Part shown: positions 40,080 to 55,198 of the stretch, one piece after another | How positions within the stretch are numbered: position 1 is the stretch's first letter | Layout: each line of letters starts with the position of its first letter | From: a virus | Taxonomy: Duplodnaviria; Caudoviricetes | Reading direction: 5' to 3' (one strand) | Length of the DNA stretch: 64,000 nt | Virus record (IMG/VR): IMGVR_UViG_3300032312_001422 | Location: 1-64,000 of that record | Made by a program: the position numbers and the translations under genes | The notes under the pieces: model-generated | What the model saw: only the letters and a program-made list of their open reading frames with translations | The model's database searches: none | What the model was told of the DNA's origin: nothing

Positions 40080-40550
40080 ATGGGCATCAAAAAACAGGTT
40101 ATCGCATCCTATGCCAGCGTATCTGTAGCACTGATCATGGTATCTATGTCAACAGCATCCGCTGAGCTGGTACACAACTTTCAAAGTCCGGCCTTTATAC
40201 CAGGCAATGGATTTAGCCAGCACGTTCTTACTATTCATCAGTTAGAAGAAGCCAAGAAAAAAGAGATCAAAGCAGAACAACTTGCTGCCATAGCCAAAGC
40301 AGAAACTGCGGCCAAAAACACCAACTTGGCAAAATTCTTGGTCAACGTAGAAGCACGTATCTACGCACAATTATCCAAACAACTGGCAGATCAAATGTTT
40401 TCCGAAGGTGGCGGCGATAGTGGAACTATGAACTTTCAGGGTAGCACTATCAGTTGGGTTAAAACTGGCACCGATGTAACTTTAACTATTATTGAAGCCA
40501 CGGGTGGCCGAACTGAGATCACTGTACCTATAGCGAGCTTTGCATTTTAA
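40080..40550 (+). CDS. csgF: Curli assembly protein CsgF-like
   Basis: Signal peptide, then ELVHNFQSPAF.PGNG resembling mature CsgF N-terminus; G....G.I...T...V...I......T.I.VP; upstream of csgG. Confidence 0.8.
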   Translation: MGIKKQVIASYASVSVALIMVSMSTASAELVHNFQSPAFIPGNGFSQHVLTIHQLEEAKKKEIKAEQLAAIAKAETAAKNTNLAKFLVNVEARIYAQLSKQLADQMFSEGGGDSGTMNFQGSTISWVKTGTDVTLTIIEATGGRTEITVPIASFAF

Positions 40551-41686
40551 TGAAAAGAATTTTATTATCATTGATTTTATTAACATTGTCTGGCTGTGCC
40601 CATGTTCACATGGAAGCAGGCAAGGAAGACCCAGTGGCTCTACAACCTAGAGAAAGTTTAATCAGTAAAATACCAGAATTGGATGGACCAGCCATTACTA
40701 TTGCTGTCTACGGATTTACAGACAAAACAGGTCAGATGAAGGCCAATGATAGAATAGCAGTATTCAGCAAGGCAGTTACCCAGGGTGCTGAAGTGTTCCT
40801 AATCAAAAGTCTGCAGGACTCAAAGAATTGGTTCAAAGTAGTTGAGCGTGTGGGACTAGATAATCTAATTAAAGAACGTCAGCTAATACGTAACCAACGA
40901 GAAGTTTACGAAGGCAAGGATGCCAGACCACTCAAGCCCATGACAGTGGCAGGAGTGATGATAGAAGGTGGCATCATTGGCTATGACAGCAATATTAGAT
41001 CAGGTGGTAATGGTGCTAGATTTTTAGGTATTGGAGGTAGCCAACAGTATCGCGTAGACGAAATTGTAATTAGCTTAAGATTAATCAGTGTCAATTCGGG
41101 TGAAGTATTGATAACCAATGCTGTAAGCAAGACTATTTTTAGTACACAACACAACGTGGGTGTGCTACGTTTTGTAGACGCAGGCACCAAGGCCTTGGAA
41201 TTAGAAAATGGCATGGCCTTGAATGAGCCTACTACTTATGCGGTACGGGTGGCCATTGAACAGGCAGTTTACGACATGATCGTTGAAGGCGAAAAGAAAG
41301 GCATTTGGAGATATAAGAAAACAGTCCAGGTGCCAGCGAAAGAAGAAGTCAAGGTAGAACCTAAGAAAGAAGTTGTGGTTCAACCGCAACCTAAGGTTTC
41401 TGCTCCTGTGGTAGAAACAACGGTAGAAGAAAAGAAAGCAGAACCTAAAACATTGTTTGGACAAAGTAGATTGAAAGAAGCCGAATTCATTTACAAAGAA
41501 CCAAACGATAAAAGTCAAAAAACTTGGCAGTTCAAGAAAGGCACAGTAGTAAATGTTGTCCAACCTGTAAGCGAGGGTTGGATTCGAGTGGTAGATGTAG
41601 AAGGAAGAGGCGGTTGGATTAAAATGGATGCAGTACAAGAAGTACCACCAGAGAAATCGGGGCTGGGGGACAAAAATAAAAATTAA
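40550..41686 (+). CDS. csgG: Curli secretion channel CsgG fused to a C-terminal SH3-like domain
   Basis: Lipobox LSGC; AVYGFTDKTGQ, AVTQGA, WFKVVER.GLDNLIKERQLIR, EGGIIGYDSN; tail KKGTVVNVV....GWIRV....GRGGWI. Confidence 0.93.
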   Translation: MKRILLSLILLTLSGCAHVHMEAGKEDPVALQPRESLISKIPELDGPAITIAVYGFTDKTGQMKANDRIAVFSKAVTQGAEVFLIKSLQDSKNWFKVVERVGLDNLIKERQLIRNQREVYEGKDARPLKPMTVAGVMIEGGIIGYDSNIRSGGNGARFLGIGGSQQYRVDEIVISLRLISVNSGEVLITNAVSKTIFSTQHNVGVLRFVDAGTKALELENGMALNEPTTYAVRVAIEQAVYDMIVEGEKKGIWRYKKTVQVPAKEEVKVEPKKEVVVQPQPKVSAPVVETTVEEKKAEPKTLFGQSRLKEAEFIYKEPNDKSQKTWQFKKGTVVNVVQPVSEGWIRVVDVEGRGGWIKMDAVQEVPPEKSGLGDKNKN

Positions 41687-41733
41687 AGGTCACTGACCAA
41701 GGAGCAAATTAGGCTAAACCTAATTTAATAAAA

Positions 41734-42390
41734 ATGAAAACAAGTAAGCTAGGTAGAAAATTACTTGCGATACTGATGACATCAGCAATGCTGTCATCGG
41801 GAACGTGGGCTAACGATGTATACATAGAACAGATTGGTGATAACTCATCAGTTTCAATTACACAGACAGGTGCTGGTAACATGGTCAACGGTAACGTGGG
41901 CGGAACTGGCAACGACAATGACACGGCATTGATTCGTGGTGATTTCAACGATGTAACTGTTAATCAAATTGGTGCTGGTAACATTGCCAGTATCATTATT
42001 AACAATGAAAGCAATGGTACTGGCGCCACAGTGGTTGTGTCAGCAGATGGTAGTAGCAATACACAGACCATTGGATGCGGCACAGCATTGAGTTCCAGTT
42101 GTAATGCCAGCGTTATCAGATCAGAAATCACAGGCAACAATAACAACACAGTACAGATGTTGAGTGGTGGTGCTGTACAAAGTAAGATCGCTATCAACGG
42201 TAACTGGAACAATGTAACACATGCCGCAAGTGGTGCGGGTCAACATTCAGGGGAGATCACAGTTTCTGGTAGCGGAACCAACAGTATTGCCAATGCTGTA
42301 ACACTGACACAAAGCGGAGCACTGACCAAGAATGCGATTATTACCAGCAACGGTTCTAATAACAACGTTATCGTTACTCAGTCCGATTAA
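41734..42390 (+). CDS. Curlin-repeat protein (CsgA/CsgB-like)
   Basis: Signal peptide; repeated x-Q-x-G-x-x-N units (EQIGDN, TQTGAGN, NQIGAGN, TQSG). Confidence 0.85.
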   Translation: MKTSKLGRKLLAILMTSAMLSSGTWANDVYIEQIGDNSSVSITQTGAGNMVNGNVGGTGNDNDTALIRGDFNDVTVNQIGAGNIASIIINNESNGTGATVVVSADGSSNTQTIGCGTALSSSCNASVIRSEITGNNNNTVQMLSGGAVQSKIAINGNWNNVTHAASGAGQHSGEITVSGSGTNSIANAVTLTQSGALTKNAIITSNGSNNNVIVTQSD

Positions 42391-43432
42391 CAGCTTTGCT
42401 GCTGTAGGCAAAGTTACTGAACAAACAGGACCAACTGAGATTCTGCGTGACCGGAAGAGTATATCTTCAAGTGTAAACACCGGTGTGGAAATGAACGACA
42501 CAGTCAGTACTGCTCGAGCAAAAGCAGAACTGACTTTTGACGACAAGACCACAGTCAAACTCACAGAACACAGCAAACTGATCATAGATGACTTCGTATA
42601 TGACGCAAAGAAAGGCACTGGTAAATTGGCTCTAAACATGGCCATGGGTACTGCTCGCTATGCCAGCGGACAAATAGCCAAAAACAATCCACAACAGGTA
42701 GCAATAAAAACCCCCACAGCAACCATTGCGGTACGAGGCACTGACTTTTCCATGACAGTGGACGAACTGGGTCGTAGTCTAGTTATACTGTTGCCCAGTT
42801 GTGACAGCAAGGGCTGTGTAACTGGAGCAATTGAAGTTGGCAATTTGGCAGGTGTTGTGTTGCTGGATGTGCCTTATCAAGCCACCTTGGTGTCGTCCCT
42901 GAACACACCGCCAAGCCAACCTGCCATAGTCAAACTGGATCAAGCCAACATCAACAACATGTTGATCATCAGCAAGCCTCAGGAAGTACAAGACGATACT
43001 ACTGCTGGCACTACCAAAAAAGAAAAAAGTATATTGGACTTTAATGCCCTAGACGTTGACCTATTGAAATTTACAAAATTGGATGAAAACAAATTGGACA
43101 ATTTTAGAGAGCTAGATAGAAACGACCTTGATGCTGACCTATTGGCTTACAACGCATTGAATGAATTGGACAGACAGAACGCATCATTACTCGGTGATGA
43201 ATTGGACATACCAGTGTTGCCGGGATATAGTGCTAATAAAACTCTAGGGCTACTGTATTATTTCAACGACGATGCCAGCAAGGTAACCCTATACAAAGCA
43301 GGCACACACAATGCCACTGCCACATTTGACACTACTAAGAATGTTACCTTTACGCTGATACAAAATGGTCAGACCATCATACAGGACGTAAACAAAGGTA
43401 GTACCAGCACATTGACTATCACACAAAACTAA
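42332..43432 (+). CDS. FecR-domain periplasmic protein
   Basis: Signal peptide; D.V.T....A.L.F.D.T.V.L..HS.L.ID.FVYD; IKTPTATIAVRGTDF. Confidence 0.9.
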   Translation: MRLLPATVLITTLSLLSPINSFAAVGKVTEQTGPTEILRDRKSISSSVNTGVEMNDTVSTARAKAELTFDDKTTVKLTEHSKLIIDDFVYDAKKGTGKLALNMAMGTARYASGQIAKNNPQQVAIKTPTATIAVRGTDFSMTVDELGRSLVILLPSCDSKGCVTGAIEVGNLAGVVLLDVPYQATLVSSLNTPPSQPAIVKLDQANINNMLIISKPQEVQDDTTAGTTKKEKSILDFNALDVDLLKFTKLDENKLDNFRELDRNDLDADLLAYNALNELDRQNASLLGDELDIPVLPGYSANKTLGLLYYFNDDASKVTLYKAGTHNATATFDTTKNVTFTLIQNGQTIIQDVNKGSTSTLTITQN

Positions 43433-43435
43433 ATC

Positions 43436-43597
43436 ATGATTCCGTTGAATATACCGCCAATATGTATTGTACCCGAATGCAAACATGGTGCCCAAATACT
43501 TTCCAAACAAGGCGATATCATCAAGTACATGCTAACATGTCGCCACCACTGGTTCGATCTAATACCACAGAATCGACAACAAAAACCCAATAAATAA
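43436..43597 (+). CDS. Small Cys/His protein (53 aa, not in ORF track)
   Basis: CIVPEC...C RHHW pattern; may be a remnant of a Zn-finger/HNH gene. Confidence 0.35.
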   Translation: MIPLNIPPICIVPECKHGAQILSKQGDIIKYMLTCRHHWFDLIPQNRQQKPNK

Positions 43598-43689
43598 TTT
43601 TGTAAGTTTGAGATTTACTGAATACCCAGTACGGGATCAATGATGTATGAGTATCGAGATCAAGAAAAATAATAAAAAGGATCTCGACA

Positions 43690-45741
43690 ATGAAGTTTAA
43701 AAAAATAGTTGTGGCTATAGCAATAGCCTTTGCGACTTCGGCCGCTCTGGCTCAGAACTCTGTATTACAAAACGAATATATTAAAGCAGGTGTCAATGAA
43801 ACAACAGGCACATTGGGTTCTGGTGGCAACACCAGCCCTGGCCTGTTGTACAACAACGCAGGTTCCAGCACCTGGAACACAGCATACGATTACCTAACAC
43901 CTGGAAGTCCTTTTGAAGGCTTTACGGTACGTATTGAGGACTCAGCCGGTACATTAATTAATACATATACAAACAATAACACTGGTATTCGTAACCTAAC
44001 TGGAGCCTGGGTCGGATCACCATCAAGCAGTAGTGCAGTATGGGCCGGCTCTAACTCACAGTTTGCACTACAGCATACTTACAGTTTGCCAAGTGGTCAA
44101 AAGTACATTGATATTGACACACGCATTGAAGCATACATTGCCATGCCTAAGTTATGGTTTGGTCGATTCATTGACCCAGATGCAGTAGCAGCCGCAGGTG
44201 ACAGTTCGGCAACCGACAACGTGCTAGGCTACGGTGCTATCAGTCGTAACAACGTGGTGTTCTCTGAAGCCACAGTGAGTCGTTATGCATTAGGCCTGTA
44301 CTCGGCACAGTCCAACGTCAAAGCCGGTATTGCAGGATGGTCAACAGATCCCAAAGCATACTATGCCAACGGTACAGCAGGCTACGGCACCTATACTGAC
44401 AACACATACGGCAACGGTGACGATACCATTGGCTTAGGTTTTTACATGGGCGGCGTCAGCATTGGAGACATTGTAAACTTCCGTTATGCTTATATCTTTG
44501 GACCAAGTGCGTTTGGTGCAGCCGAATCGGCAGTGGCCGGCGGCGCAGGCGGCGGCACACCTGGTACAGTTCCAGGTGGCGGCACATTAGTAGACGTTGG
44601 GTCAGCAACTGATTCAGCAAGCACAGGTGGTTCAAGTGCACCTACTGTAACAGGTACGACTACAGCAACCATCACAGTTAGTGATGTAACCGCAGTAAAT
44701 ACCGTATTGCCTGTGATTACCGGCAGTATTGCACACCACGTGGCCACAGAAGCCACAGGCAAGCAAACCATTGCTCGTGAAACCACAACCAGTGTAACAA
44801 CACCAATGCGTCGTGATGTTACAACACTTGTAAGAACTACAAGTACCTGGAGTGACGGCACAACAACAACCAGTGATAGTGACGCAACAACAGCAACAAC
44901 ACTAAGCAACAATGTAGATACCAGCATTGCCAACGACAGTTTTTCAGGACGCATTGATCAACAAGCAGTATTGAACACCTTAAACAAAGGTCTTGGTCGC
45001 TCACTGGACATGAACGCTTTCCGTGCAGATGGTATTCGTACAGAAAATGGTCGTATGTACATCAATGGTGGTAGTGCTAAAACTGCTGGTCAAAACGGAT
45101 ACAATGCCACAAGTCGTTTATACGGTGTAGGTGTAGAAGTTAATGTTGATCGTGATTGGGCTGTTGGTGCACAGTTTAACAAAGTCAACACAACATTAAA
45201 TGGGGTTGACAGCACAACCGGTCAGGACAAAACACACTTTGGTTTGTTCAGCGTATTGGATATTGAAGGTGCCAAGTTGGTCAACAATATTGGTTATGCA
45301 CAAAACGATATCAAATCCAATCGTACTATTCGTGGCATTGACTTCAACAACAGTCACTCAACCACAGGCAGTGACTTGTGGACCAGTGTTAGATTGTACA
45401 GTCCAGATTATGCAGGCTTTCGTCCGTTTGTGGGTGGTGCTGTTGGTCGTCAACAAGTTGGTGGTTATACCGAAGCCGGTAGTATTCAAAGTTATCGTGT
45501 AGTAGGCAGTGAAAATACCAGTTATCGTTACGGTGAAGGTGGCCTGCGTTACGAAGCCAAACTAGACGACTTTACAGCAGCAACTGAATTGTCAGCCACA
45601 ACTGATCAGTTTAAAACAGCTGCAGTGAGTTTGGCATATGATGTAAACAAGTACAGCGTAGTTGCTGTTACTGGTCAACGTCAGATCAATCCTACTGTAT
45701 CAACTAACTTGGTTAATTTAACTTTAATGGTTAGATTCTAA
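43690..45741 (+). CDS. Autotransporter-like outer membrane beta-barrel protein
   Basis: Signal peptide, Gly/Thr-rich passenger, amphipathic strands (RPFVGG..G...V.GYTE.GS), C-terminal Phe. Confidence 0.8.
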   Translation: MKFKKIVVAIAIAFATSAALAQNSVLQNEYIKAGVNETTGTLGSGGNTSPGLLYNNAGSSTWNTAYDYLTPGSPFEGFTVRIEDSAGTLINTYTNNNTGIRNLTGAWVGSPSSSSAVWAGSNSQFALQHTYSLPSGQKYIDIDTRIEAYIAMPKLWFGRFIDPDAVAAAGDSSATDNVLGYGAISRNNVVFSEATVSRYALGLYSAQSNVKAGIAGWSTDPKAYYANGTAGYGTYTDNTYGNGDDTIGLGFYMGGVSIGDIVNFRYAYIFGPSAFGAAESAVAGGAGGGTPGTVPGGGTLVDVGSATDSASTGGSSAPTVTGTTTATITVSDVTAVNTVLPVITGSIAHHVATEATGKQTIARETTTSVTTPMRRDVTTLVRTTSTWSDGTTTTSDSDATTATTLSNNVDTSIANDSFSGRIDQQAVLNTLNKGLGRSLDMNAFRADGIRTENGRMYINGGSAKTAGQNGYNATSRLYGVGVEVNVDRDWAVGAQFNKVNTTLNGVDSTTGQDKTHFGLFSVLDIEGAKLVNNIGYAQNDIKSNRTIRGIDFNNSHSTTGSDLWTSVRLYSPDYAGFRPFVGGAVGRQQVGGYTEAGSIQSYRVVGSENTSYRYGEGGLRYEAKLDDFTAATELSATTDQFKTAAVSLAYDVNKYSVVAVTGQRQINPTVSTNLVNLTLMVRF

Positions 45742-45742
45742 G

Positions 45743-45777
45743 ATGTAATACAAATGTAATATTCTAAGACTTAAATA
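45743..45777 (+). promoter_or_regulatory. Pho-box-like site 1 plus TAAATA
   Basis: ATGTAAT-ACAA-ATGTAAT (11-bp direct repeat) matches CTGTCAT-N4-CTGTMAY; TTAAAT follows after 10 nt. Confidence 0.6.
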
Positions 45778-45786
45778 ATCTTAGCG

Positions 45787-45824
45787 GACACAAAGATGGG
45801 GTGTCACTGGAACCCGTAACCAGT
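45787..45824 (+). ncRNA. Candidate two-hairpin RNA with complementary loops
   Basis: GACAC/GTGTC and ACTGG/CCAGT stems; loops contain ATGGG and CCCGT. Confidence 0.35.
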
Positions 45825-45866
45825 AACAATTCTGTAATATCTTTGCAACACCTTGAGCGATAAATA
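45821..45866 (+). promoter_or_regulatory. Pho-box-like array 2 plus TAAATA
   Basis: CAGTAAC-AATT-CTGTAAT-ATCT-TTGCAAC, three half-sites in 11-bp register, directly upstream of the plcP-like ATG. Confidence 0.55.
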
Positions 45867-46663
45867 TGGTTATGACAGCCAAAACTTATCGCTCAATTTT
45901 TATTAGTGACATACACTTTGGCACTAGAGATTGCAAAGCCGAACAACTCAACAACTTTCTCAAACACAACACCTGTGAAACACTTTACCTAGTGGGCGAC
46001 ATCATCGACGCCTGGAAGATTCAACAAAACAAATGGCGATGGAAACAAAGCCACACCAATGCAATCAGACGAATATTAGGACACGCTAAACGTGGTACTC
46101 GAGTGATCTATGTGGCTGGCAACCACGATGAGTTCCTGAGACCACTCATACCTTACGGCATGGGATTTGGACGTGTTGAAATAACAAATCAAACAGAACA
46201 CATCGGGGTAGATGGCAAAACATATTTGGTCACCCACGGAGACCTGTTTGATGGTATTACCAGGTTAGCACCTTGGTTAAGTTTCTTAGGTGATAAACTG
46301 TACGATCTAGTATTGGATTGGAACAGCAGATTCAACTGGATCAGACACAAACTAGGCTTTGGCTACTGGTCGTTAAGCAAGTATCTTAAACATCGTGTTA
46401 AAAAAGCCGCGGACTTTATGTTTCAATTTGAAATTAATCTAGCAACCTACTGCAAGAAGCGTGGCTTTGATGGTGTGATCTGTGGACACATACATCATGC
46501 AGAGATAAAAACTATAGATGGCGTCATATATATGAATGATGGCGACTGGGTAGAATCAATGACTGCCTTGGTTGAGCATCATGACGGTAAGTGGGAAATA
46601 GTAACTTGGACAAAGACACACGACGATGTGGATACTGATACTGTTGGCAGTTCACACCAATAA
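45866..46663 (+). CDS. plcP: PlcP-like phospholipase C (calcineurin-like metallophosphoesterase, often annotated UDP-2,3-diacylglucosamine hydrolase)
   Basis: YRSIFISDIHFG, LVGDIID.W, AGNHDE, THGD.FD, CGHIHH, YMNDGDWVES.TALVE; GNHD rather than the GNRD of canonical LpxH; paired with agt-like GT. Confidence 0.75.
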   Translation: MVMTAKTYRSIFISDIHFGTRDCKAEQLNNFLKHNTCETLYLVGDIIDAWKIQQNKWRWKQSHTNAIRRILGHAKRGTRVIYVAGNHDEFLRPLIPYGMGFGRVEITNQTEHIGVDGKTYLVTHGDLFDGITRLAPWLSFLGDKLYDLVLDWNSRFNWIRHKLGFGYWSLSKYLKHRVKKAADFMFQFEINLATYCKKRGFDGVICGHIHHAEIKTIDGVIYMNDGDWVESMTALVEHHDGKWEIVTWTKTHDDVDTDTVGSSHQ

Positions 46664-46799
46664 CCCGCAAGACATACCCGGACGAGTAACAATTGAGTTT
46701 GCTACCGAATCCGAATGCTTACGAGCCCAAAGCACAGTTCAATACTGGCTCAAGTTTGATAGTTTCAAGGTAAGTACACGATGTCAAAAACAATCTTAA
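46626..46799 (+). CDS. Small exported protein (57 aa, not in ORF track)
   Basis: MWILILLAVH...ECLRA...STRCQKQS; hydrophobic start, two Cys; bridges the plcP and agt ORFs. Confidence 0.55.
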   Translation: MWILILLAVHTNNPQDIPGRVTIEFATESECLRAQSTVQYWLKFDSFKVSTRCQKQS

Positions 46800-47776
46800 T
46801 CATAACAGACAATGTCCCAGATCAAATCAACGGCGTGGTCACAACTTTCACAAACCTGGAAGATCATGCTAGGCGTGATGGGTATAGTGTTGTTTATTGT
46901 CATCCCGGGCAGTTCCCTAATTTTGCTTGCCCTGGTTATCCTGAAGTTCGCTTGTGCTGGCCGCACGGTATCAGTAAGAAAATTAAAGCGATACAGCCAG
47001 ATTATATACACATCGCTACGGAAGGGCCAGTAGGCCTGTTTGCTCGTTGGTGGTGTGAACGCAATCATATACCCTACAATACCAGTTATCACACAGACTT
47101 TCCTGAATTCCTGCGTACCATGTACTGTGTACCAAAAAGTCTAACTTACTGGTACTTGCGTTGGTTTCACAAGAACAGTCATCGTGTGTTGGTTACTACA
47201 CGAACCATTGAGCAAGAATTATCCGGCCGTGGATTTTCTAATCTAGTTGTTTGGACCCGCGGTGTGCGTAGAGATCTAACACCAAGCCAAAAACGTTGTG
47301 AACGTACACGGCCCGTGTTGCTTAATGTAGGACGTGTCAGTGCTGAAAAAGGCCTGGCAGAATTATCCAAGTTGCAAGATGACTACACATTGGTCATTGT
47401 TGGGGATGGCCCATTTATGCCGCAGGCCCGGGAGTTATTGCCCAATGCCAAGTTTGTTGGATATAAATCTGGGCAAGAATTGGTTGATTATTATCACGAT
47501 GCTGATGTGTTTGTATTTCCAAGCCGAGCAGATACTTTTGGCCTAGTCATTATTGAAGCCATGGCGCAGGGCACTCCTGTTGCGGCATTTCCTGTACAAG
47601 GACCTGTGGACATCATTGAAACTGGTGTAAACGGCCACATGGAACAAGATTTAACTGTGGCAGTCAAAAAGTGTTTGACTCTTGATCGTCAACAAGTTAA
47701 AAAATCCAGTCAACGTTGGACTTGGCAAGAGTGTTGGAGTATCTTTAAGGACAATCTAGCAGTAATAAATACTTGA
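46781..47776 (+). CDS. GT4 glycosyltransferase, Agt-like glycolipid synthase
   Basis: TD..P.QINGVVTT, CPGYPEVRL, PD.IHIATEGP.G, YHT.FPE, LRWFH, VGRVSAEK, FVFPS..DTFGLV..EAMA.GTPVAA. Confidence 0.85.
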   Translation: MSKTILIITDNVPDQINGVVTTFTNLEDHARRDGYSVVYCHPGQFPNFACPGYPEVRLCWPHGISKKIKAIQPDYIHIATEGPVGLFARWWCERNHIPYNTSYHTDFPEFLRTMYCVPKSLTYWYLRWFHKNSHRVLVTTRTIEQELSGRGFSNLVVWTRGVRRDLTPSQKRCERTRPVLLNVGRVSAEKGLAELSKLQDDYTLVIVGDGPFMPQARELLPNAKFVGYKSGQELVDYYHDADVFVFPSRADTFGLVIIEAMAQGTPVAAFPVQGPVDIIETGVNGHMEQDLTVAVKKCLTLDRQQVKKSSQRWTWQECWSIFKDNLAVINT

Positions 47777-49791
47777 TGTTCAAAAAAATCTTAACCAGTC
47801 CCTGGACTGCTCTATTAACCCTAACAATCATCGTGGGCTTGCGTGTTGCAGATCCTGTGTTTGTTGAAAGTGTAAGACTACGTTACTTTGACACTCTGGT
47901 TACCAGCAAGGCACCAGAAACAATTGGAGTTAGTGTAGTAAACATAGACGAAAAATCCCTAGAACGATATGGGCAATTTCCTTTTTCTCGCGATGTGTAC
48001 GGTGCTATTATTCGAGACCTTTATAAACGCAATGCCGGGCTTGTTGTGTTTAACGTTCTTACTCCAGACAAAGACCGTATGGGGCAAGACTCTGCGTATG
48101 TACAAGCATTAAAACAATTTCCAACAGTACTTCCCAACATTGGATCAACTGTGTCACGCAATACTCCACGGGTTCCCGGATCGGTTGTAATTGGTCCTTT
48201 TGAGAGACCGTTTATTGTGTATCCTGGTATTATTGCTAACGCACCGGCAATTGAAAATGCCGCCGTTGGTGTGGGCTTGGTAAACACACTTCCAGAAGTT
48301 GATGGTGTTGTGCGTCGTATGCCAATGGTAGCCGATAGCCAAGGTCGACTATATCCCAGTCTAGCAATGGAAGTAATGCGTGTGGCCGCAGGCGACACAA
48401 CATTCCAGGTCAAGATAAATGAGTCAGGCGTTGAGAAAATGCGTATTCCCAAATTTGGAGCCATTACCACAGACAGTCTGAGTCGTATATGGATTGACTG
48501 GAGCTTGACGCCAGAACGGTACAGTTTAATGGACTTGCCCCAAGACTTTGACGGAGAGATTGTCATAGTAGGTGTAAGTGCTCAGGGATTGAGCAATCCG
48601 GTAGCAACTAGTCTGGGTGAAATGTTACCACAAGATTTACAAGCAGCTGTGATAGGCACAGTAATTGCCAATCAAAATCGTCCTGCTATTACACGTCCTG
48701 ATTGGGCAGATGGTGCAGAAATCATGGCTATGGTCATTGCAGGTGTACTATTACTATTTTTAACGAGGTGGATATATGTTGGATTGGGTTCGGTTGTTGT
48801 TATTGCGGGTGCGGCGCTTGTTGGTGCTCATTATGGTTATCTCTATTATGCCTATCTATTTGATGTCACTGCCTTTGTTGGCGCAGTTGTTCTTGTGTCC
48901 CTCCACGCTTACGGAGTTAAGTTTGTCAGCGAATTCTTGCAAAAGCAACAGATAAAGAAACAGTTTGGAAGTTATGTCAATCCTACTATAGTAGAACGAC
49001 TACAACAACATCCTGAACTGATCAAACTAGGTGGAGAAAAGAAGATGTTGAGTGTGGTCATGACAGACATGCGTAACTTTACGGCACTGGGCGAAAGCTA
49101 TGGTGAAGCAGGCGTTGAAGATTTTACAAAAGTAATGAACAGTTATATGACTGCACTAAGTCGTCCTATCTTGAAGAATGACGGCACACTGATCAAGTTT
49201 ATTGGAGATGCCAGTTTACACATACACGGTGCTCCATTAGACGACCCAGATCATGCTTATCGTGCTGTACAAACTGCACTAGAAATGATTGAAGCAGTCA
49301 AAGTATTCAATGATGAACTTGCTGTGTTGGGCAAGCCACCTGTTGGTATGGGTGCTGGTGTCAACACTGGCGAGATTGTTGTGGGCAACATTGGTGCTGA
49401 AAGCAAGTTTGGTTACGATGTCTTGGGCGATCCAGTTAGTCTAGCCGCACGTTTAGAAAGTCAAACCAAAGGCTACGGCGTACTAATGATCATTAGTGAA
49501 AACACGGCTCGGTTAGTTGAAGGTCGCTTTTCACTGTGGGAGTTGGATAATATTGCAGTCAAAGGTAAAACAGAACCTGTGCGTATATTTGCCATACATG
49601 AACCCACAGATGAACACAAAGAATTTTTAAACAATTACTACGGTGGTAGTTGGTCAAAAGCGTTGAAGATGATTCCTGAGTGCAAAAACGCTGCACCTGA
49701 TATGGAGAAATATTATGATGCAATGGCAGACCGACTGGAACAAGGTAGACCCAAAACGTGGAATGGGTATTTTGTGGCTACCAGTAAATAA
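47773..49791 (+). CDS. CHASE2-domain class III adenylate cyclase
   Basis: N-terminal TM, CHASE2 (VNIDEKSL..YGQFPFSR; DGVVRR.P), TM bundle, TDMRNFT, KFIGDA, GNIG...YDVLGD, LAARLE; ATG at 47776. Confidence 0.93.
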   Translation: MMFKKILTSPWTALLTLTIIVGLRVADPVFVESVRLRYFDTLVTSKAPETIGVSVVNIDEKSLERYGQFPFSRDVYGAIIRDLYKRNAGLVVFNVLTPDKDRMGQDSAYVQALKQFPTVLPNIGSTVSRNTPRVPGSVVIGPFERPFIVYPGIIANAPAIENAAVGVGLVNTLPEVDGVVRRMPMVADSQGRLYPSLAMEVMRVAAGDTTFQVKINESGVEKMRIPKFGAITTDSLSRIWIDWSLTPERYSLMDLPQDFDGEIVIVGVSAQGLSNPVATSLGEMLPQDLQAAVIGTVIANQNRPAITRPDWADGAEIMAMVIAGVLLLFLTRWIYVGLGSVVVIAGAALVGAHYGYLYYAYLFDVTAFVGAVVLVSLHAYGVKFVSEFLQKQQIKKQFGSYVNPTIVERLQQHPELIKLGGEKKMLSVVMTDMRNFTALGESYGEAGVEDFTKVMNSYMTALSRPILKNDGTLIKFIGDASLHIHGAPLDDPDHAYRAVQTALEMIEAVKVFNDELAVLGKPPVGMGAGVNTGEIVVGNIGAESKFGYDVLGDPVSLAARLESQTKGYGVLMIISENTARLVEGRFSLWELDNIAVKGKTEPVRIFAIHEPTDEHKEFLNNYYGGSWSKALKMIPECKNAAPDMEKYYDAMADRLEQGRPKTWNGYFVATSK

Positions 49792-49979: not shown

Positions 49980-51098
49980 ATGTCTGACGTATGTTCTATA
50001 TCCTTTGCACTGGATCCCACTAATACTCCTAGTTTTTTATTAGACTGGGAAATTACCAAACGCTGTAATCTCGATTGCACGTATTGTGGTCCAACAGAAC
50101 ATGACAACACCACAGAACACCCGCCCCTAGCTGAATGTTTACAAAGCATAGACTTTATGTTTGAGTACGTTAGCGAGTATATGCAACACATCAAGCCTAA
50201 TCAACGTAAAGTTATTTTAAATGTGTATGGCGGTGAAAGCCTATTTCACCCAGACATTGTTCAAATACTAGAACAGGTTAGAATCAAATACCGACCCTAT
50301 GCCGACCAATGGTACTTAACCGTTACCTGCACAACCAATGGGGTAGTGGGGGAAAATCAATTTGGAAAGATTGTTCCCCTGGTAGATTACTTTTCAATGA
50401 GTTATCATGCAGAGGGATTACTCAAACAACAAAAATTATATTTTAACAATTTGCTCGCACTAAAACAAGCCAACAAGCCCACCAAAGCAATCATCATGAT
50501 GCATAACACACGCTGGAAAGATAGTGAACGTGCTATTGAATTTTGTAAAGAACACAGCATCAATTATCTGGCCAAAGTAGTAGACACACCTGCAGACAAA
50601 GAATGGAAGTACAACAATACACAACTTGACTACATGAAAATGTTTTGGGTAAGTAAGTCTGAGTTTGACTCTAACAAGAACATGTTGGAGCAAGGACGTG
50701 CCTGTTGCGGCGGACGAAAGTTAAGCACCAATGGAAACTTACGAGAAGCCATTACGTTTGTTCCTAGACAAGGATTTCGTGATTGGTCGTGTAGTGTAAA
50801 CTGGTACTTTTTATTTGTAGAACAGCTTACTGGACAGGTCTATACCAACAAAGATTGTAAAACAAGTACTACAGGACGAGTTGAGCCTCTTGGCACCATC
50901 AACAACTATCGAGAGATTATTGACACAGTTCGACAACAGTTTGCCGCAGGCATGCCTGTTATACGTTGTGTAAAAGATCGTTGTGCTTGCGGATATTGTG
51001 CACCAAAGGCTGAGTCGCCAGCGGAGTTTTTAAACTTGCTTGGCCGCCATGTTGTCGATTTGAGGATTTTTGACAGTGACAAGACCAAATCGATGTAA
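49980..51098 (+). CDS. Radical SAM enzyme with Cys-rich C-terminal (SPASM-like) domain
   Basis: CNLDCTYC, GGES, TTNG, SYH; C-terminal C...C...CACGYC. Confidence 0.9.
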   Translation: MSDVCSISFALDPTNTPSFLLDWEITKRCNLDCTYCGPTEHDNTTEHPPLAECLQSIDFMFEYVSEYMQHIKPNQRKVILNVYGGESLFHPDIVQILEQVRIKYRPYADQWYLTVTCTTNGVVGENQFGKIVPLVDYFSMSYHAEGLLKQQKLYFNNLLALKQANKPTKAIIMMHNTRWKDSERAIEFCKEHSINYLAKVVDTPADKEWKYNNTQLDYMKMFWVSKSEFDSNKNMLEQGRACCGGRKLSTNGNLREAITFVPRQGFRDWSCSVNWYFLFVEQLTGQVYTNKDCKTSTTGRVEPLGTINNYREIIDTVRQQFAAGMPVIRCVKDRCACGYCAPKAESPAEFLNLLGRHVVDLRIFDSDKTKSM

Positions 51099-51770
51099 CA
51101 GTTTAATATAAGTCCAGCCCAAGTCCCATTCCCACTTTTTTACACTGAGTTTTGCACTGGCTGGATCTGCGTGATGATTGTTGTGTAGTTCTTCGCCGCC
51201 GATGAAAAACGCCCAAGGCACAATGTTAGTACTGTAATCTTTGGTCTGTGTGTTGCGATATCCCCACCAATGCCCAAAGCCGTTGACAACACCAGCAGCC
51301 CATAAGGGGATCCAAATCATCTGCCATAGCCAAGGTAACCAACCCCAAGCCCAACCAAATATCATCGAGTTTATAAAGAACATTAGGATTATGCCCACAA
51401 AGTTAAATCTTGTGTAGATATTCCGTTCAACCCAGTCATTGGGTGTACCCGCCCCATAAGATTCAACCATTTGTTTATCTTTGGCAGCATCAGCATAATA
51501 AAAAGCACCACAAAGAAATACCTGCCAAATGCCAAATACGTGTGGGCTATGCGGGTCGCCCTCTGCGTCAGTGAATCTATGATGTTTGCGATGTGTAGCT
51601 ACCCATTGTTTTGTGACCATGCCCGTGGTTAACCACAACCAGAATCGCATGAAATGTTCTACACGAGAATCAAATGTGACACCGCGGTGTGCTTGACTTC
51701 TATGTAGATATAGAGTAACGCAAGCAATGGTGATGTGAGTCATCACCAGAATGTATATTAATAAGCCCAT
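51030..51770 (-). CDS. desA: Fatty acid (acyl-CoA delta-9) desaturase, DesA-like
   Basis: His boxes HRSQAH, HRKHH and HNNHH; GDPHSP. Confidence 0.92.
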   Translation of the reverse strand: MGLLIYILVMTHITIACVTLYLHRSQAHRGVTFDSRVEHFMRFWLWLTTGMVTKQWVATHRKHHRFTDAEGDPHSPHVFGIWQVFLCGAFYYADAAKDKQMVESYGAGTPNDWVERNIYTRFNFVGIILMFFINSMIFGWAWGWLPWLWQMIWIPLWAAGVVNGFGHWWGYRNTQTKDYSTNIVPWAFFIGGEELHNNHHADPASAKLSVKKWEWDLGWTYIKLLHRFGLVTVKNPQIDNMAAKQV

Positions 51771-53974: not shown

Positions 53975-55198
53975 ATGAACGTAGGCTTTATAGGTTGTGG
54001 AAAATTAGGAATGGCTTGTGCTGAAACTATGGCAAGCAAACACGATGTCACTGGTTATGATATTTATCCGGTAAAAAGCGACAAAATAACTATTGCATCC
54101 ACTTTGCAACAGGCAGTGGAAGGCAAAGAGTTGATCTTTATTGCTGTCCAAACTCCGCATGATCCCATCTACGGTGGCGATCAACCAATTACTCATTTAA
54201 AGAACAAAGACTTTGATTATACTGTAGTCAATGATGTATTACGTCAAGTAAATGAATTTGCAACACCTGAGCAGTTAGTAGTTCTTATCTCCACAGTTCT
54301 TCCCGGCACTACACGTAGAGAACTGAAGACAAACATTACCAAGGCACGTTTCATTTATAACCCATACTTAATCGCAATGGGATCAGTAGAGTGGGACATG
54401 GTTAACCCAGAGATGGTTATCATTGGCACTGAAGATGGTAGCGAGACAGGCGATGCTCGCTTATTGACCGACTTCTATAATACATTAATGGAGAACAATC
54501 CACGTTACGTAGTGGGCACGTGGGACGAGGCTGAATGTATCAAGGTATTTTATAATACATTCATCTCGGCAAAGATTGGCCTGGTAAACATGATCCAAGA
54601 CGTAGCTGTCAAACAAGGCAACATCAATGTGGATGTAGTCACTGATGCATTGGCCAATTCAACCATGCGGATTATGGGACCCAAGTACATGACAGCAGGA
54701 ATGGGAGATGCAGGGCCATGTCATCCTAGAGATAACATTGCCTTGCGTTACCTTGCAGAAAACTTGGATCTAGGATATGATATTTTTGATACCATCATGA
54801 AAGCACGTGAGATTCAAGCCAAGAATATGGCACGTTACATTTATGATAACCGTACAGGACTTCCCGTTTACATCCACGGCAAGGCCTATAAACCCGGTGT
54901 GGCTTACCTAGAAGGCAGTTATAGTTTGTTGGTAGGTAGCTATTTGAAACAAATGGGTATAGACCCTTATTATATTGATCCGTTAACCGATCCAGCGACA
55001 GTACCGGCCAGTGTTGTGGGTTGCGTGTTGCTGGCACATAACCAACAGGTAACGTATGGCTATGCCGGTGTTACCGATAGACAACCACTGTATTCTGAAA
55101 TACTCAGTGGTAGTATTGTTATTGATCCATGGCGCAAATATACCACAGACAACAAAGAAATTTGTGTTATACACTACGGCAACACAAGACATCAATGA
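53975..55198 (+). CDS. ugd: UDP-glucose/GDP-mannose 6-dehydrogenase family
   Basis: GFIGCGKLG Rossmann, IAVQTP, STVLPGT, AE.IKV.YN.F.S.KI, GPCHPRD, KP. Confidence 0.85.
   Translation: MNVGFIGCGKLGMACAETMASKHDVTGYDIYPVKSDKITIASTLQQAVEGKELIFIAVQTPHDPIYGGDQPITHLKNKDFDYTVVNDVLRQVNEFATPEQLVVLISTVLPGTTRRELKTNITKARFIYNPYLIAMGSVEWDMVNPEMVIIGTEDGSETGDARLLTDFYNTLMENNPRYVVGTWDEAECIKVFYNTFISAKIGLVNMIQDVAVKQGNINVDVVTDALANSTMRIMGPKYMTAGMGDAGPCHPRDNIALRYLAENLDLGYDIFDTIMKAREIQAKNMARYIYDNRTGLPVYIHGKAYKPGVAYLEGSYSLLVGSYLKQMGIDPYYIDPLTDPATVPASVVGCVLLAHNQQVTYGYAGVTDRQPLYSEILSGSIVIDPWRKYTTDNKEICVIHYGNTRHQ

Follow-up and report, generated by a model that had tools for sequence, protein, structure and literature searches.

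The window analysed here is a 64,000-nt stretch of viral DNA (Duplodnaviria; Caudoviricetes), bases 1-64000 of the 288,815-bp IMG/VR virus record IMGVR_UViG_3300032312_001422, whose estimated completeness is about 80%. Two adjacent genes in this window encode a calcineurin-like phosphoesterase (PlcP) and a family 4 glycosyltransferase (GT4; Agt). Judged from their sequences and surroundings, they probably constitute a phage-carried version of the bacterial PlcP-Agt lipid renovation pathway, one that would mine the host membrane for phosphorus. The pair and the elements in front of it are as follows.

45743..45760, + strand: distal Pho-box-like array, ATGTAAT-ACAA-ATGTAAT, with a TAAATA 11 nt on, at 45772-45777
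45821..45849, + strand: proximal Pho-box-like array, CAGTAAC-AATT-CTGTAAT-ATCT-TTGCAAC, three direct repeats with an 11-bp period
45861..45866, + strand: TAAATA box, candidate T4-type late or -10-like promoter element, 11 nt past the proximal array
45866..46663, + strand: plcP, 265 aa; PlcP (LpxH2) family metallophosphoesterase of the Mn type, predicted to act as a phospholipase C and yield diacylglycerol
46781..47776, + strand: agt, 331 aa; GT4 enzyme of the Agt/GTcp clade, predicted UDP-sugar:diacylglycerol glycosyltransferase with monoglucosyldiacylglycerol (MGDG) and/or glucuronosyldiacylglycerol (GADG) as product

A first-pass annotation, made from the letters of the window, had drawn attention to this pair. 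Both of its open reading frames (ORFs), 45866-46663 and 46781-47776, were recovered on the + strand, and the motifs it had quoted are all present in the translations: SDIHFG, GDIID, GNHDE, HGD, GHIHH and NDGDWVES in the phosphoesterase, and QINGVV, CPGYPEVRL, HIATEGP, YHTDFPE and LRWFH in the glycosyltransferase. The coordinates of the plcP frame stood, with a small correction to its start codon: alignment with relatives points to the second ATG, at 45872 instead of 45866, as the likely true start. The two genes are separated by 117 nt. Neither protein contains a signal peptide or hydrophobic segment, and PlcP is predicted to be soluble or peripheral.

The pair sits well inside the genome of an uncultured T4-like jumbo phage, as seen from the T4-like core genes of the record and from a GC content close to that of the surrounding DNA. 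A primase, a DnaB-like helicase, both ribonucleotide reductase subunits and tail-like proteins are encoded within the window. Elsewhere in the 289-kb record we found homologues of eight Pelagibacter phage Mosig proteins: the T4-type major capsid protein, portal, sheath, prohead protease, gp25, DNA polymerase, gp55 and gp47. T4-like core genes flank the pair on both sides.

The phosphoesterase was compared with Pseudomonas aeruginosa PlcP (PA3219), with the Sinorhizobium meliloti PlcP encoded beside sinR/sinI, and with Escherichia coli LpxH; the sequences of PA3219 and of the P. aeruginosa Agt1 (PA3218) came from a piece of chromosome that is filed as a plasmid. The functions of PA3219 and PA3218 are established in P. 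aeruginosa (PMC8528852), and SMc00171 of S. meliloti is a phospholipase C and a member of the Pho regulon (PMC3596328). By BLASTP, the window protein was 54% identical to PA3219 over its full length (E 6e-89) and 45% identical to S. meliloti PlcP (E 2e-80). The two bacterial proteins were 47% identical to each other in our comparison (published value, 46%); at the sequence level, the phage protein is thus as close to the characterised PlcPs as these are to each other. The match to E. coli LpxH was partial, with 22% identity over 123 aa (E 3e-5).

Pfam placed the phosphoesterase in Metallophos (3.5e-11). Against the LpxH equivalogs of NCBIfam it scored 43.8 bits for NF003743 (cut-off 134) and 33.8 bits for TIGR01854 (cut-off 190.35). 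The calcineurin-like motif set (DxH, GD, GNH[D/E], H, GH, GHxH) is complete, and all metal-binding residues (D15, H17, D45, N86, H87, H124, H208 and H210) are present and invariant in 24 phage and bacterial homologues. The earlier observation of GNHD rather than GNRD was borne out in alignments with P. aeruginosa and E. coli LpxH: the motif reads GNRD in both LpxH proteins, and GNHD or GNHE in the window protein and every PlcP. The motifs YWSLS and GDWVES..TAL.EH are common to the window protein and the PlcPs, and the C-terminus of LpxH differs. In a maximum-likelihood tree the phosphoesterase fell among the PlcPs. The phage PlcPs were monophyletic (support 96/88) and lay among bacterial PlcPs, with LpxH as a distant outgroup whose branch measured about 10 substitutions per site. 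We therefore rejected an assignment to LpxH on the NCBIfam cut-offs, pairwise identity, motifs and tree; by these comparisons the phosphoesterase is PlcP, as the first-pass annotation had proposed.

An AlphaFold2 model of PlcP (mean predicted local distance difference test, pLDDT, 78) showed a confident, LpxH-like core and a helical insert at residues 125-198, in which segments 130-142 and 165-177 had pLDDT below 50. The 25 best PDB matches of the model were all LpxH, at 15-21% identity. We know of no solved PlcP structure in the PDB, and an LpxH structure is therefore the best fold match to be expected. An LpxH-like fold would fit a lipid substrate.

The glycosyltransferase has the GT-B architecture of GT4 enzymes, with Glycos_transf_1 (2.2e-23) and Glyco_transf_4 (7.4e-16) Pfam domains in a protein of 331 aa; GTcp, the Agt of SAR11, is encoded by 1,005 bp (PMC8231724). 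Its identity to P. aeruginosa Agt1 was 38% over the full length (332 columns, E 1e-75), and characterised Agts have published mutual identities of 35-43%. Enzymes of the Agt/GTcp clade possess a His104-Asp256 dyad, in which Asp replaces the Glu of other GT4 enzymes, and the motifs GRVAXEKN and FPSXTDTFG (PMC8231724). Diacylglycerol is contacted in GTcp by Thr162, Arg163 and Trp320, and each mutant is inactive (PMC8231724). In the window Agt the dyad appears as H104 in YHTDFPE and D251 in FPSRADTFG. The UDP-sugar motifs are GRVSAEKG (R185, K190) and FPSRADTFG followed by E259, with Gly-rich positions at G18, G82 and G85. The residues for diacylglycerol contact, T159 and R160 in WTRGV together with W315, stand at the expected offsets. 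On its sequence, the transferase is an Agt that carries the residues found essential in the SAR11 Agt by mutagenesis, including the clade-typical Asp. Similarity to PA3218, the GTcp residues and bacterial synteny all uphold this identity, which had also been the first proposal; synteny with bacteria likewise upholds that of PlcP.

Phage Agt sequences were monophyletic in the tree. At the catalytic position, which lies in FPSRADTFG at 47526-47552 of the window, 14 of them (including that of the window) have Asp and 27 have Glu. Because the D256E mutant of the SAR11 Agt lost more than 90% of its activity, the Glu-type phage Agts may, by analogy, differ in activity or sugar preference.

Adjacency of plcP and agt was seen at 18 bacterial loci, in Proteobacteria and Holophagaceae. 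GT4 proteins encoded directly after bacterial plcP were 35-41% identical to the window Agt (Sphingomonadales, other Alphaproteobacteria and a Holophagaceae genome), and a partial match of 48% lay on a short Competibacteraceae contig. The bacterial arrangement is the published 'type 2' operon, and plcP operon types contain genes for non-phosphorus lipids: agt, a processive glycosyltransferase or btaBA (PMC4796936).

In viral sequences, close relatives of PlcP turned up on at least 596 IMG/VR contigs, and loci were compared over 6 kb on each side of plcP in the best 80, at 81-96% identity. A GT4 Agt homologue directly follows plcP in 54 of these (45-84% identity). In 25 others the same slot is occupied by a GT2/GT21-like glycosyltransferase of about 240 aa (22 complete and three cut by the contig end), as at L101:6916-7638, L090:6743-7456, L049:2005-2730 and 22 further IMG/VR loci. 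The last locus ends 186 nt past plcP, so plcP is paired with a glycosyltransferase in 79 of 79 informative loci. The two transferase types are mutually exclusive in this slot, and the GT2/GT21-like version has no homologue in the genome of the window phage. The swap mirrors, by analogy, the bacterial operon types with Agt or a processive glycosyltransferase, and it provides the strongest comparative argument for a unit that would make diacylglycerol and then glycosylate it. In the protein database there were thousands of PlcP relatives above 80% identity, several of them on contigs of 293-355 kb; the named ones carry the label LpxH.

Both genes are under purifying selection, with ratios of nonsynonymous to synonymous substitution (dN/dS) of 0.06 for plcP and 0.07-0.19 for agt. 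Conservation among related loci was 83-96% for PlcP, far above its neighbours, while Agt diverges (45-84%). Located in a phage genome, conserved in relatives and under purifying selection, plcP-agt is a pair of phage auxiliary metabolic genes (AMGs). PlcP proteins at 81-82% identity were also found on short contigs (L004, L005 and L036) of metagenome-assembled genomes (MAGs) of Haliscomenobacter, Gammaproteobacteria and Chitinophagia, and L004 carries a phage-type Agt as well. These contigs were rejected as donors: they are short, and two lie within or match the phage clade, which points to mis-binned phage DNA.

The 124-nt spacer before plcP contains two arrays of 7-bp direct repeats with an 11-bp period, each exactly 11 nt from a TAAATA. 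When both strands of the 288,815-bp genome were scanned, the tandem pattern had only two matches, both before plcP, with about one chance match expected. The repeat was rejected as a general phage promoter, since it occurs only at these two sites. Related phages supplied 40 distinct plcP upstream regions, some from loci with a GT2 partner or with other upstream genes, and in these the repeats lie at a fixed distance from TAAATA / GCGATAAATAT(T)GGTATG. The plcP start context in the jumbo-phage family is GATAAATATTGGTATG.

Similarity to a Pho box was scored against CTGTCAT-N4-CTGTCAT, the E. coli consensus and thus a pattern set a priori: at least 10 of 14 positions matched in 19% of the regions before phage plcP, versus 3.2% of background windows. 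A Parvibaculales MAG has a bona fide Pho box before plcP, CTGTCAC-AAAA-CTGTAAT, which shares the CTGTAAT half-site, and a Pho box of like architecture precedes plcP in P. aeruginosa (PMC8528852). The phage repeats are putative Pho-box-like elements through which PhoB may control plcP.

TAAATA serves as a general promoter box in this phage, as expected for a T4-type late promoter: it occurs no more than 60 nt upstream of 60 of the 277 ORFs in the genome, compared with about 2% expected. Across the genome it falls into two position classes, 23-31 nt and 10-12 nt before the start codon. The 10-12 nt class would yield leaderless or nearly leaderless mRNAs.

PlcP homologues were also identified in two isolated T4-like phages, Pelagibacter phage Mosig EXVC030M (Mosig_00120, 51% identity to the window protein) and Synechococcus phage S-SRM01 (34% identity), both annotated LpxH. 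No glycosyltransferase adjoins the PlcP homologue in either phage. In Mosig, plcP is back to back with a divergent pstS-like gene. The spacer between them (L002:5842-5994) contains TTAACA-N5-TTAACA direct repeats and ends in ATAAATATTGATATG, and the Mosig plcP start context ATAAATATTG.TATG is common to the window phage. The match of the spacer end ATAAATATTGATATG to the jumbo-phage context GATAAATATTGGTATG suggests a promoter architecture shared by Mosig and the jumbo-phage family, possibly near-leaderless. The first-pass annotation knew of no phage example of the pathway; public examples do exist, mislabelled LpxH, in these two phages and as the viral 'lpxH' of AMG surveys. We found no published discussion of the Mosig and S-SRM01 homologues as lipid remodelling genes. 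Mosig on Pelagibacter HTCC1062 offers a cultured system for the PlcP-only case.

The identities of the two enzymes are well supported, and from them we infer their activities in the infected cell and their physiological purpose. PlcP would cleave the phospho-head group from host phosphatidylethanolamine, phosphatidylglycerol or phosphatidylcholine, leaving diacylglycerol. Agt would move glucose or glucuronate from a host UDP-sugar to this diacylglycerol to form MGDG or GADG, and the bilayer would be kept while its phosphorus was freed. The phage would gain phosphate for making its nucleotides once host phosphatases had acted on the phospho-head groups; this step would depend on host enzymes because PstS, PhoA, PhoD and PhoX were not found in the record. 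By arithmetic, each copy of a genome of about 290-360 kb requires about 0.6-0.7 million phosphorus atoms. Transcription probably begins at the TAAATA box preceded by the Pho-box-like repeats, and host PhoB may raise plcP-agt expression under phosphate starvation.

A phosphorus-sparing role gains support from the Pho-box-like arrays before plcP and from the plcP-pstS arrangement in Mosig. As for the original suggestion that the phage converts phospholipid into phosphate and glycolipid, the gene identities behind it hold; the sparing of phosphorus is a role that they would permit, and the record yielded no PstS, PhoA, PhoD or PhoX. A larger claim, that a big and widely distributed family of freshwater T4-like jumbo phages has wired a lipid renovation operon to the host phosphate-starvation regulator, and that cells in phosphorus-poor lakes dismantle their phospholipids for phage DNA, is put forward tentatively, with slightly less confidence for it than against it.

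The genes around the pair form an island that encodes CsgG, a FecR-like protein, an outer membrane barrel-like protein, a CHASE2 cyclase and DesA. Directly upstream of plcP, 40550-45741 encodes CsgG with an SH3 domain, a 218-aa protein, the FecR-like protein (phrog_37870 match, 1.6e-85) and a 683-aa protein that is Thr/Ser-rich and has no family match. Three genes lie downstream of agt.

47773-49791: CHASE2-class III nucleotide cyclase, TTG start, 4-nt overlap with the agt stop
51030..51770, - strand: short DesA-family fatty acid desaturase, NF049918 at 370 bits (cut-off 400), model positions 10-242 of 385
53975..55198, + strand: nucleotide-sugar dehydrogenase (Ugd-like), TIGR03026 at 141 bits (cut-off 189.8)

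The overlap between agt and the cyclase gene suggests translational coupling. Pelagibacter phage HTVC008M and Methylophilales phage Melnitz encode homologues of the cyclase (33-36% identity). The P. aeruginosa cyclase gene, cyaB, adjoins agt1 but is convergent. Neighbours of the CsgG, FecR and cyclase types were present in 9-13 of the 80 related loci, and the pairing of plcP with a glycosyltransferase was constant. The desaturase gene overlaps the 3' end of a radical SAM gene by 69 nt. Of the 80 loci, 18 have a desaturase homologue no more than 6 kb from plcP, and a short desaturase is also present in Mosig. By its family, the enzyme is a possible further modifier of membrane lipids and a candidate member of the module.

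The first-pass annotation had noted both the desaturase and a Ugd that might supply UDP-glucuronate. Both genes are present, but a link from Ugd to Agt gained no support: the protein matches only a generic nucleotide-sugar dehydrogenase family, below threshold, and falls far below the cut-offs of the UDP-glucose dehydrogenase equivalogs. Its gene begins 6.2 kb beyond agt, with neighbours that match no family and outside the 6 kb compared on each side of plcP in the related loci, and on these sequence and distance grounds we set it aside as the supplier of UDP-glucuronate. PhoH is encoded elsewhere in the record (111906-112526, minus strand).

Several points weigh against a phosphorus-mining role for the pair. 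The residue correspondence between the window Agt and GTcp rests on motif identity and a constant offset, not on the GTcp sequence itself, and that with the HTCC7211 PlcP on motif position. The tandem pattern behind the uniqueness test was drawn up once the site had been seen. The loci in the enrichment analysis are mutually related, which inflates its Mann-Whitney p value of 1e-7. The repeats match the Pho box at 10-11 of 14 positions, and the consensus is that of E. coli, which may not be that of the host. TAAATA is general in this genome, and expression could be constitutive and late. The PstS, PhoA, PhoD and PhoX families were not found in the approximately 80%-complete record, and the 6 kb on each side of plcP in the 80 related loci yielded no homologue of the Mosig PstS. 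Finally, the envelope-gene island fits a broader role in envelope remodelling.

This last point leads to the main alternative, envelope remodelling for reasons other than phosphorus. Here the pair would still convert phospholipid to glycolipid, but the selected benefit would be a block to superinfection, altered receptor or porin function, hardening against antimicrobials, or support of phage envelope machinery such as the CsgG/curli-like proteins. The position of the pair within an island of envelope and signalling genes, with the agt stop overlapping the cyclase start, agrees with it, as do the recurrence of a DesA-type desaturase near plcP and the missing phosphate genes. In P. aeruginosa, the glycolipids made by PlcP-Agt affect resistance to polymyxin and the protein content of the membrane (PMC8528852, PMC9804370). 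Yet the envelope and cyclase neighbours come and go among related loci while plcP and its transferase partner stay together, and the Pho-box-like arrays and the pstS neighbour in Mosig indicate phosphate stress. We regard this alternative as unlikely.

It is much less probable that PlcP is a membrane-degrading factor for takeover or lysis, with an unrelated glycosyltransferase that would modify, for example, a phage or host protein or a glycan. The isolated phages that have PlcP without an adjacent transferase are compatible with such a role. The transferase that follows plcP in every informative related locus, GT4 or GT2/GT21-like in one slot, speaks against it, as do the same pairing in bacteria, where its function is proven, and the diacylglycerol-binding residues of Agt. 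Least credible of all is an LpxH-type hydrolase with a lipopolysaccharide (LPS) or polysaccharide GT4 that modifies lipid A or surface glycans. In its favour, homologues bear the name LpxH at JGI and in GenBank, the closest solved folds are LpxH (as expected of a PDB without PlcP) and weak NCBIfam LpxH matches exist, but sequence comparison has already largely refuted it, through scores of 43.8 vs 134 and 33.8 vs 190 bits, identity of 22% in a partial match to E. coli LpxH vs 54% over the full length to PA3219, GNHD in place of GNRD, the PlcP-only motifs YWSLS and GDWVES..TAL.EH, the long LpxH branch, and the Agt-clade Asp and diacylglycerol-contact residues of the transferase.

The reading that we prefer, a phage-borne PlcP-Agt pathway that would mine membrane phosphorus, is a version of a known pathway and of a known class of phosphate-stress AMGs. 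Full-text searches of the literature on phage PlcP, lipid remodelling AMGs, viral lpxH and Mosig found no account of a phage PlcP-Agt pathway. Viral AMG surveys enter 'lpxH' under LPS biosynthesis (PMC10653327, PMC9611531); phage plcP is systematically mislabelled lpxH in databases and in such surveys. Two bacterial entries were also misfiled. NZ_CP042268.1 (L122), filed as a plasmid but chromosomal, is a 3.7-Mb S. meliloti 'pSymB' with sinI/sinR and plcP. CP090106.1 (L123), a P. aeruginosa 'plasmid', has the chromosomal order plcP-agt1-cyaB (PA3219-PA3217), and azoR3 lies a few genes upstream. The two entries annotate PlcP as UDP-2,3-diacylglucosamine diphosphatase.

If phosphorus mining by PlcP-Agt is true, it would be a new phage phosphorus strategy, in which phosphorus locked in host membranes is recycled and the membrane is kept intact. 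The pair is common: IMG/VR contigs number in the hundreds, and metagenomic proteins above 80% identity in the thousands. Re-annotation would alter how viral AMG inventories, metagenomic PlcP abundances and the glycolipids that mark phosphorus stress are interpreted. On the larger, tentative claim about freshwater jumbo phages, virocells would account for part of the 'bacterial' PlcP signal and perhaps of the glycolipid marker signal, and phages with GT4 or GT2/GT21-like partners would impose different glycolipids on their hosts.

Among known systems, LpxH, the UDP-2,3-diacylglucosamine diphosphatase of lipid A synthesis, shares with PlcP a two-metal calcineurin-like core and a helical insert between core strands. 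Identity between LpxH and the window PlcP is 15-22%, the window protein has His for the LpxH Arg in GNxD, and the C-terminal motif differs. Mosig and S-SRM01 share the PlcP-family protein with the window phage, but not the adjacent glycosyltransferase.

The bacterial PlcP-Agt operons of P. aeruginosa (PA3219/PA3218), SAR11 HTCC7211 (PB7211_983/PB7211_960, GTcp), S. meliloti (SMc00171) and Agrobacterium tumefaciens (Agt, atu2297) share their protein families with the phage pair. Gene order, adjacency, and catalytic and substrate-binding residues are alike. Pho boxes lie upstream of bacterial plcP operons, and tandem repeats with an 11-bp period lie upstream of the phage pair, with YTGTAAY in the phage for the bacterial CTGTCAT. 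The phage pair differs in its T4-like jumbo phage carrier, in its own monophyletic clades and in the TAAATA promoter box ahead of it. Unlike in the bacterial operon, PlcP is very conserved in the phages, Agt has diverged, and a GT2/GT21-like enzyme replaces it in many relatives.

To our knowledge, the phosphorus AMGs of phages have so far been genes for uptake (pstS, phoA) or of unclear function (phoH). Those of cyanophages and pelagiphages (pstS, phoA, phoH) are host-derived and carried by T4-like phages, as is plcP-agt. Some cyanophage phosphate-stress genes with Pho boxes are reportedly under host PhoBR control, in work by Zeng and Chisholm from 2012. In the cyanophage case the upstream repeats resemble the binding site of a host regulator, and the repeats of the window phage do likewise. 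The cyanophage and pelagiphage genes raise the uptake of external phosphate, whereas plcP-agt, under putative PhoB control, would recycle phosphorus that is already in the host membrane.

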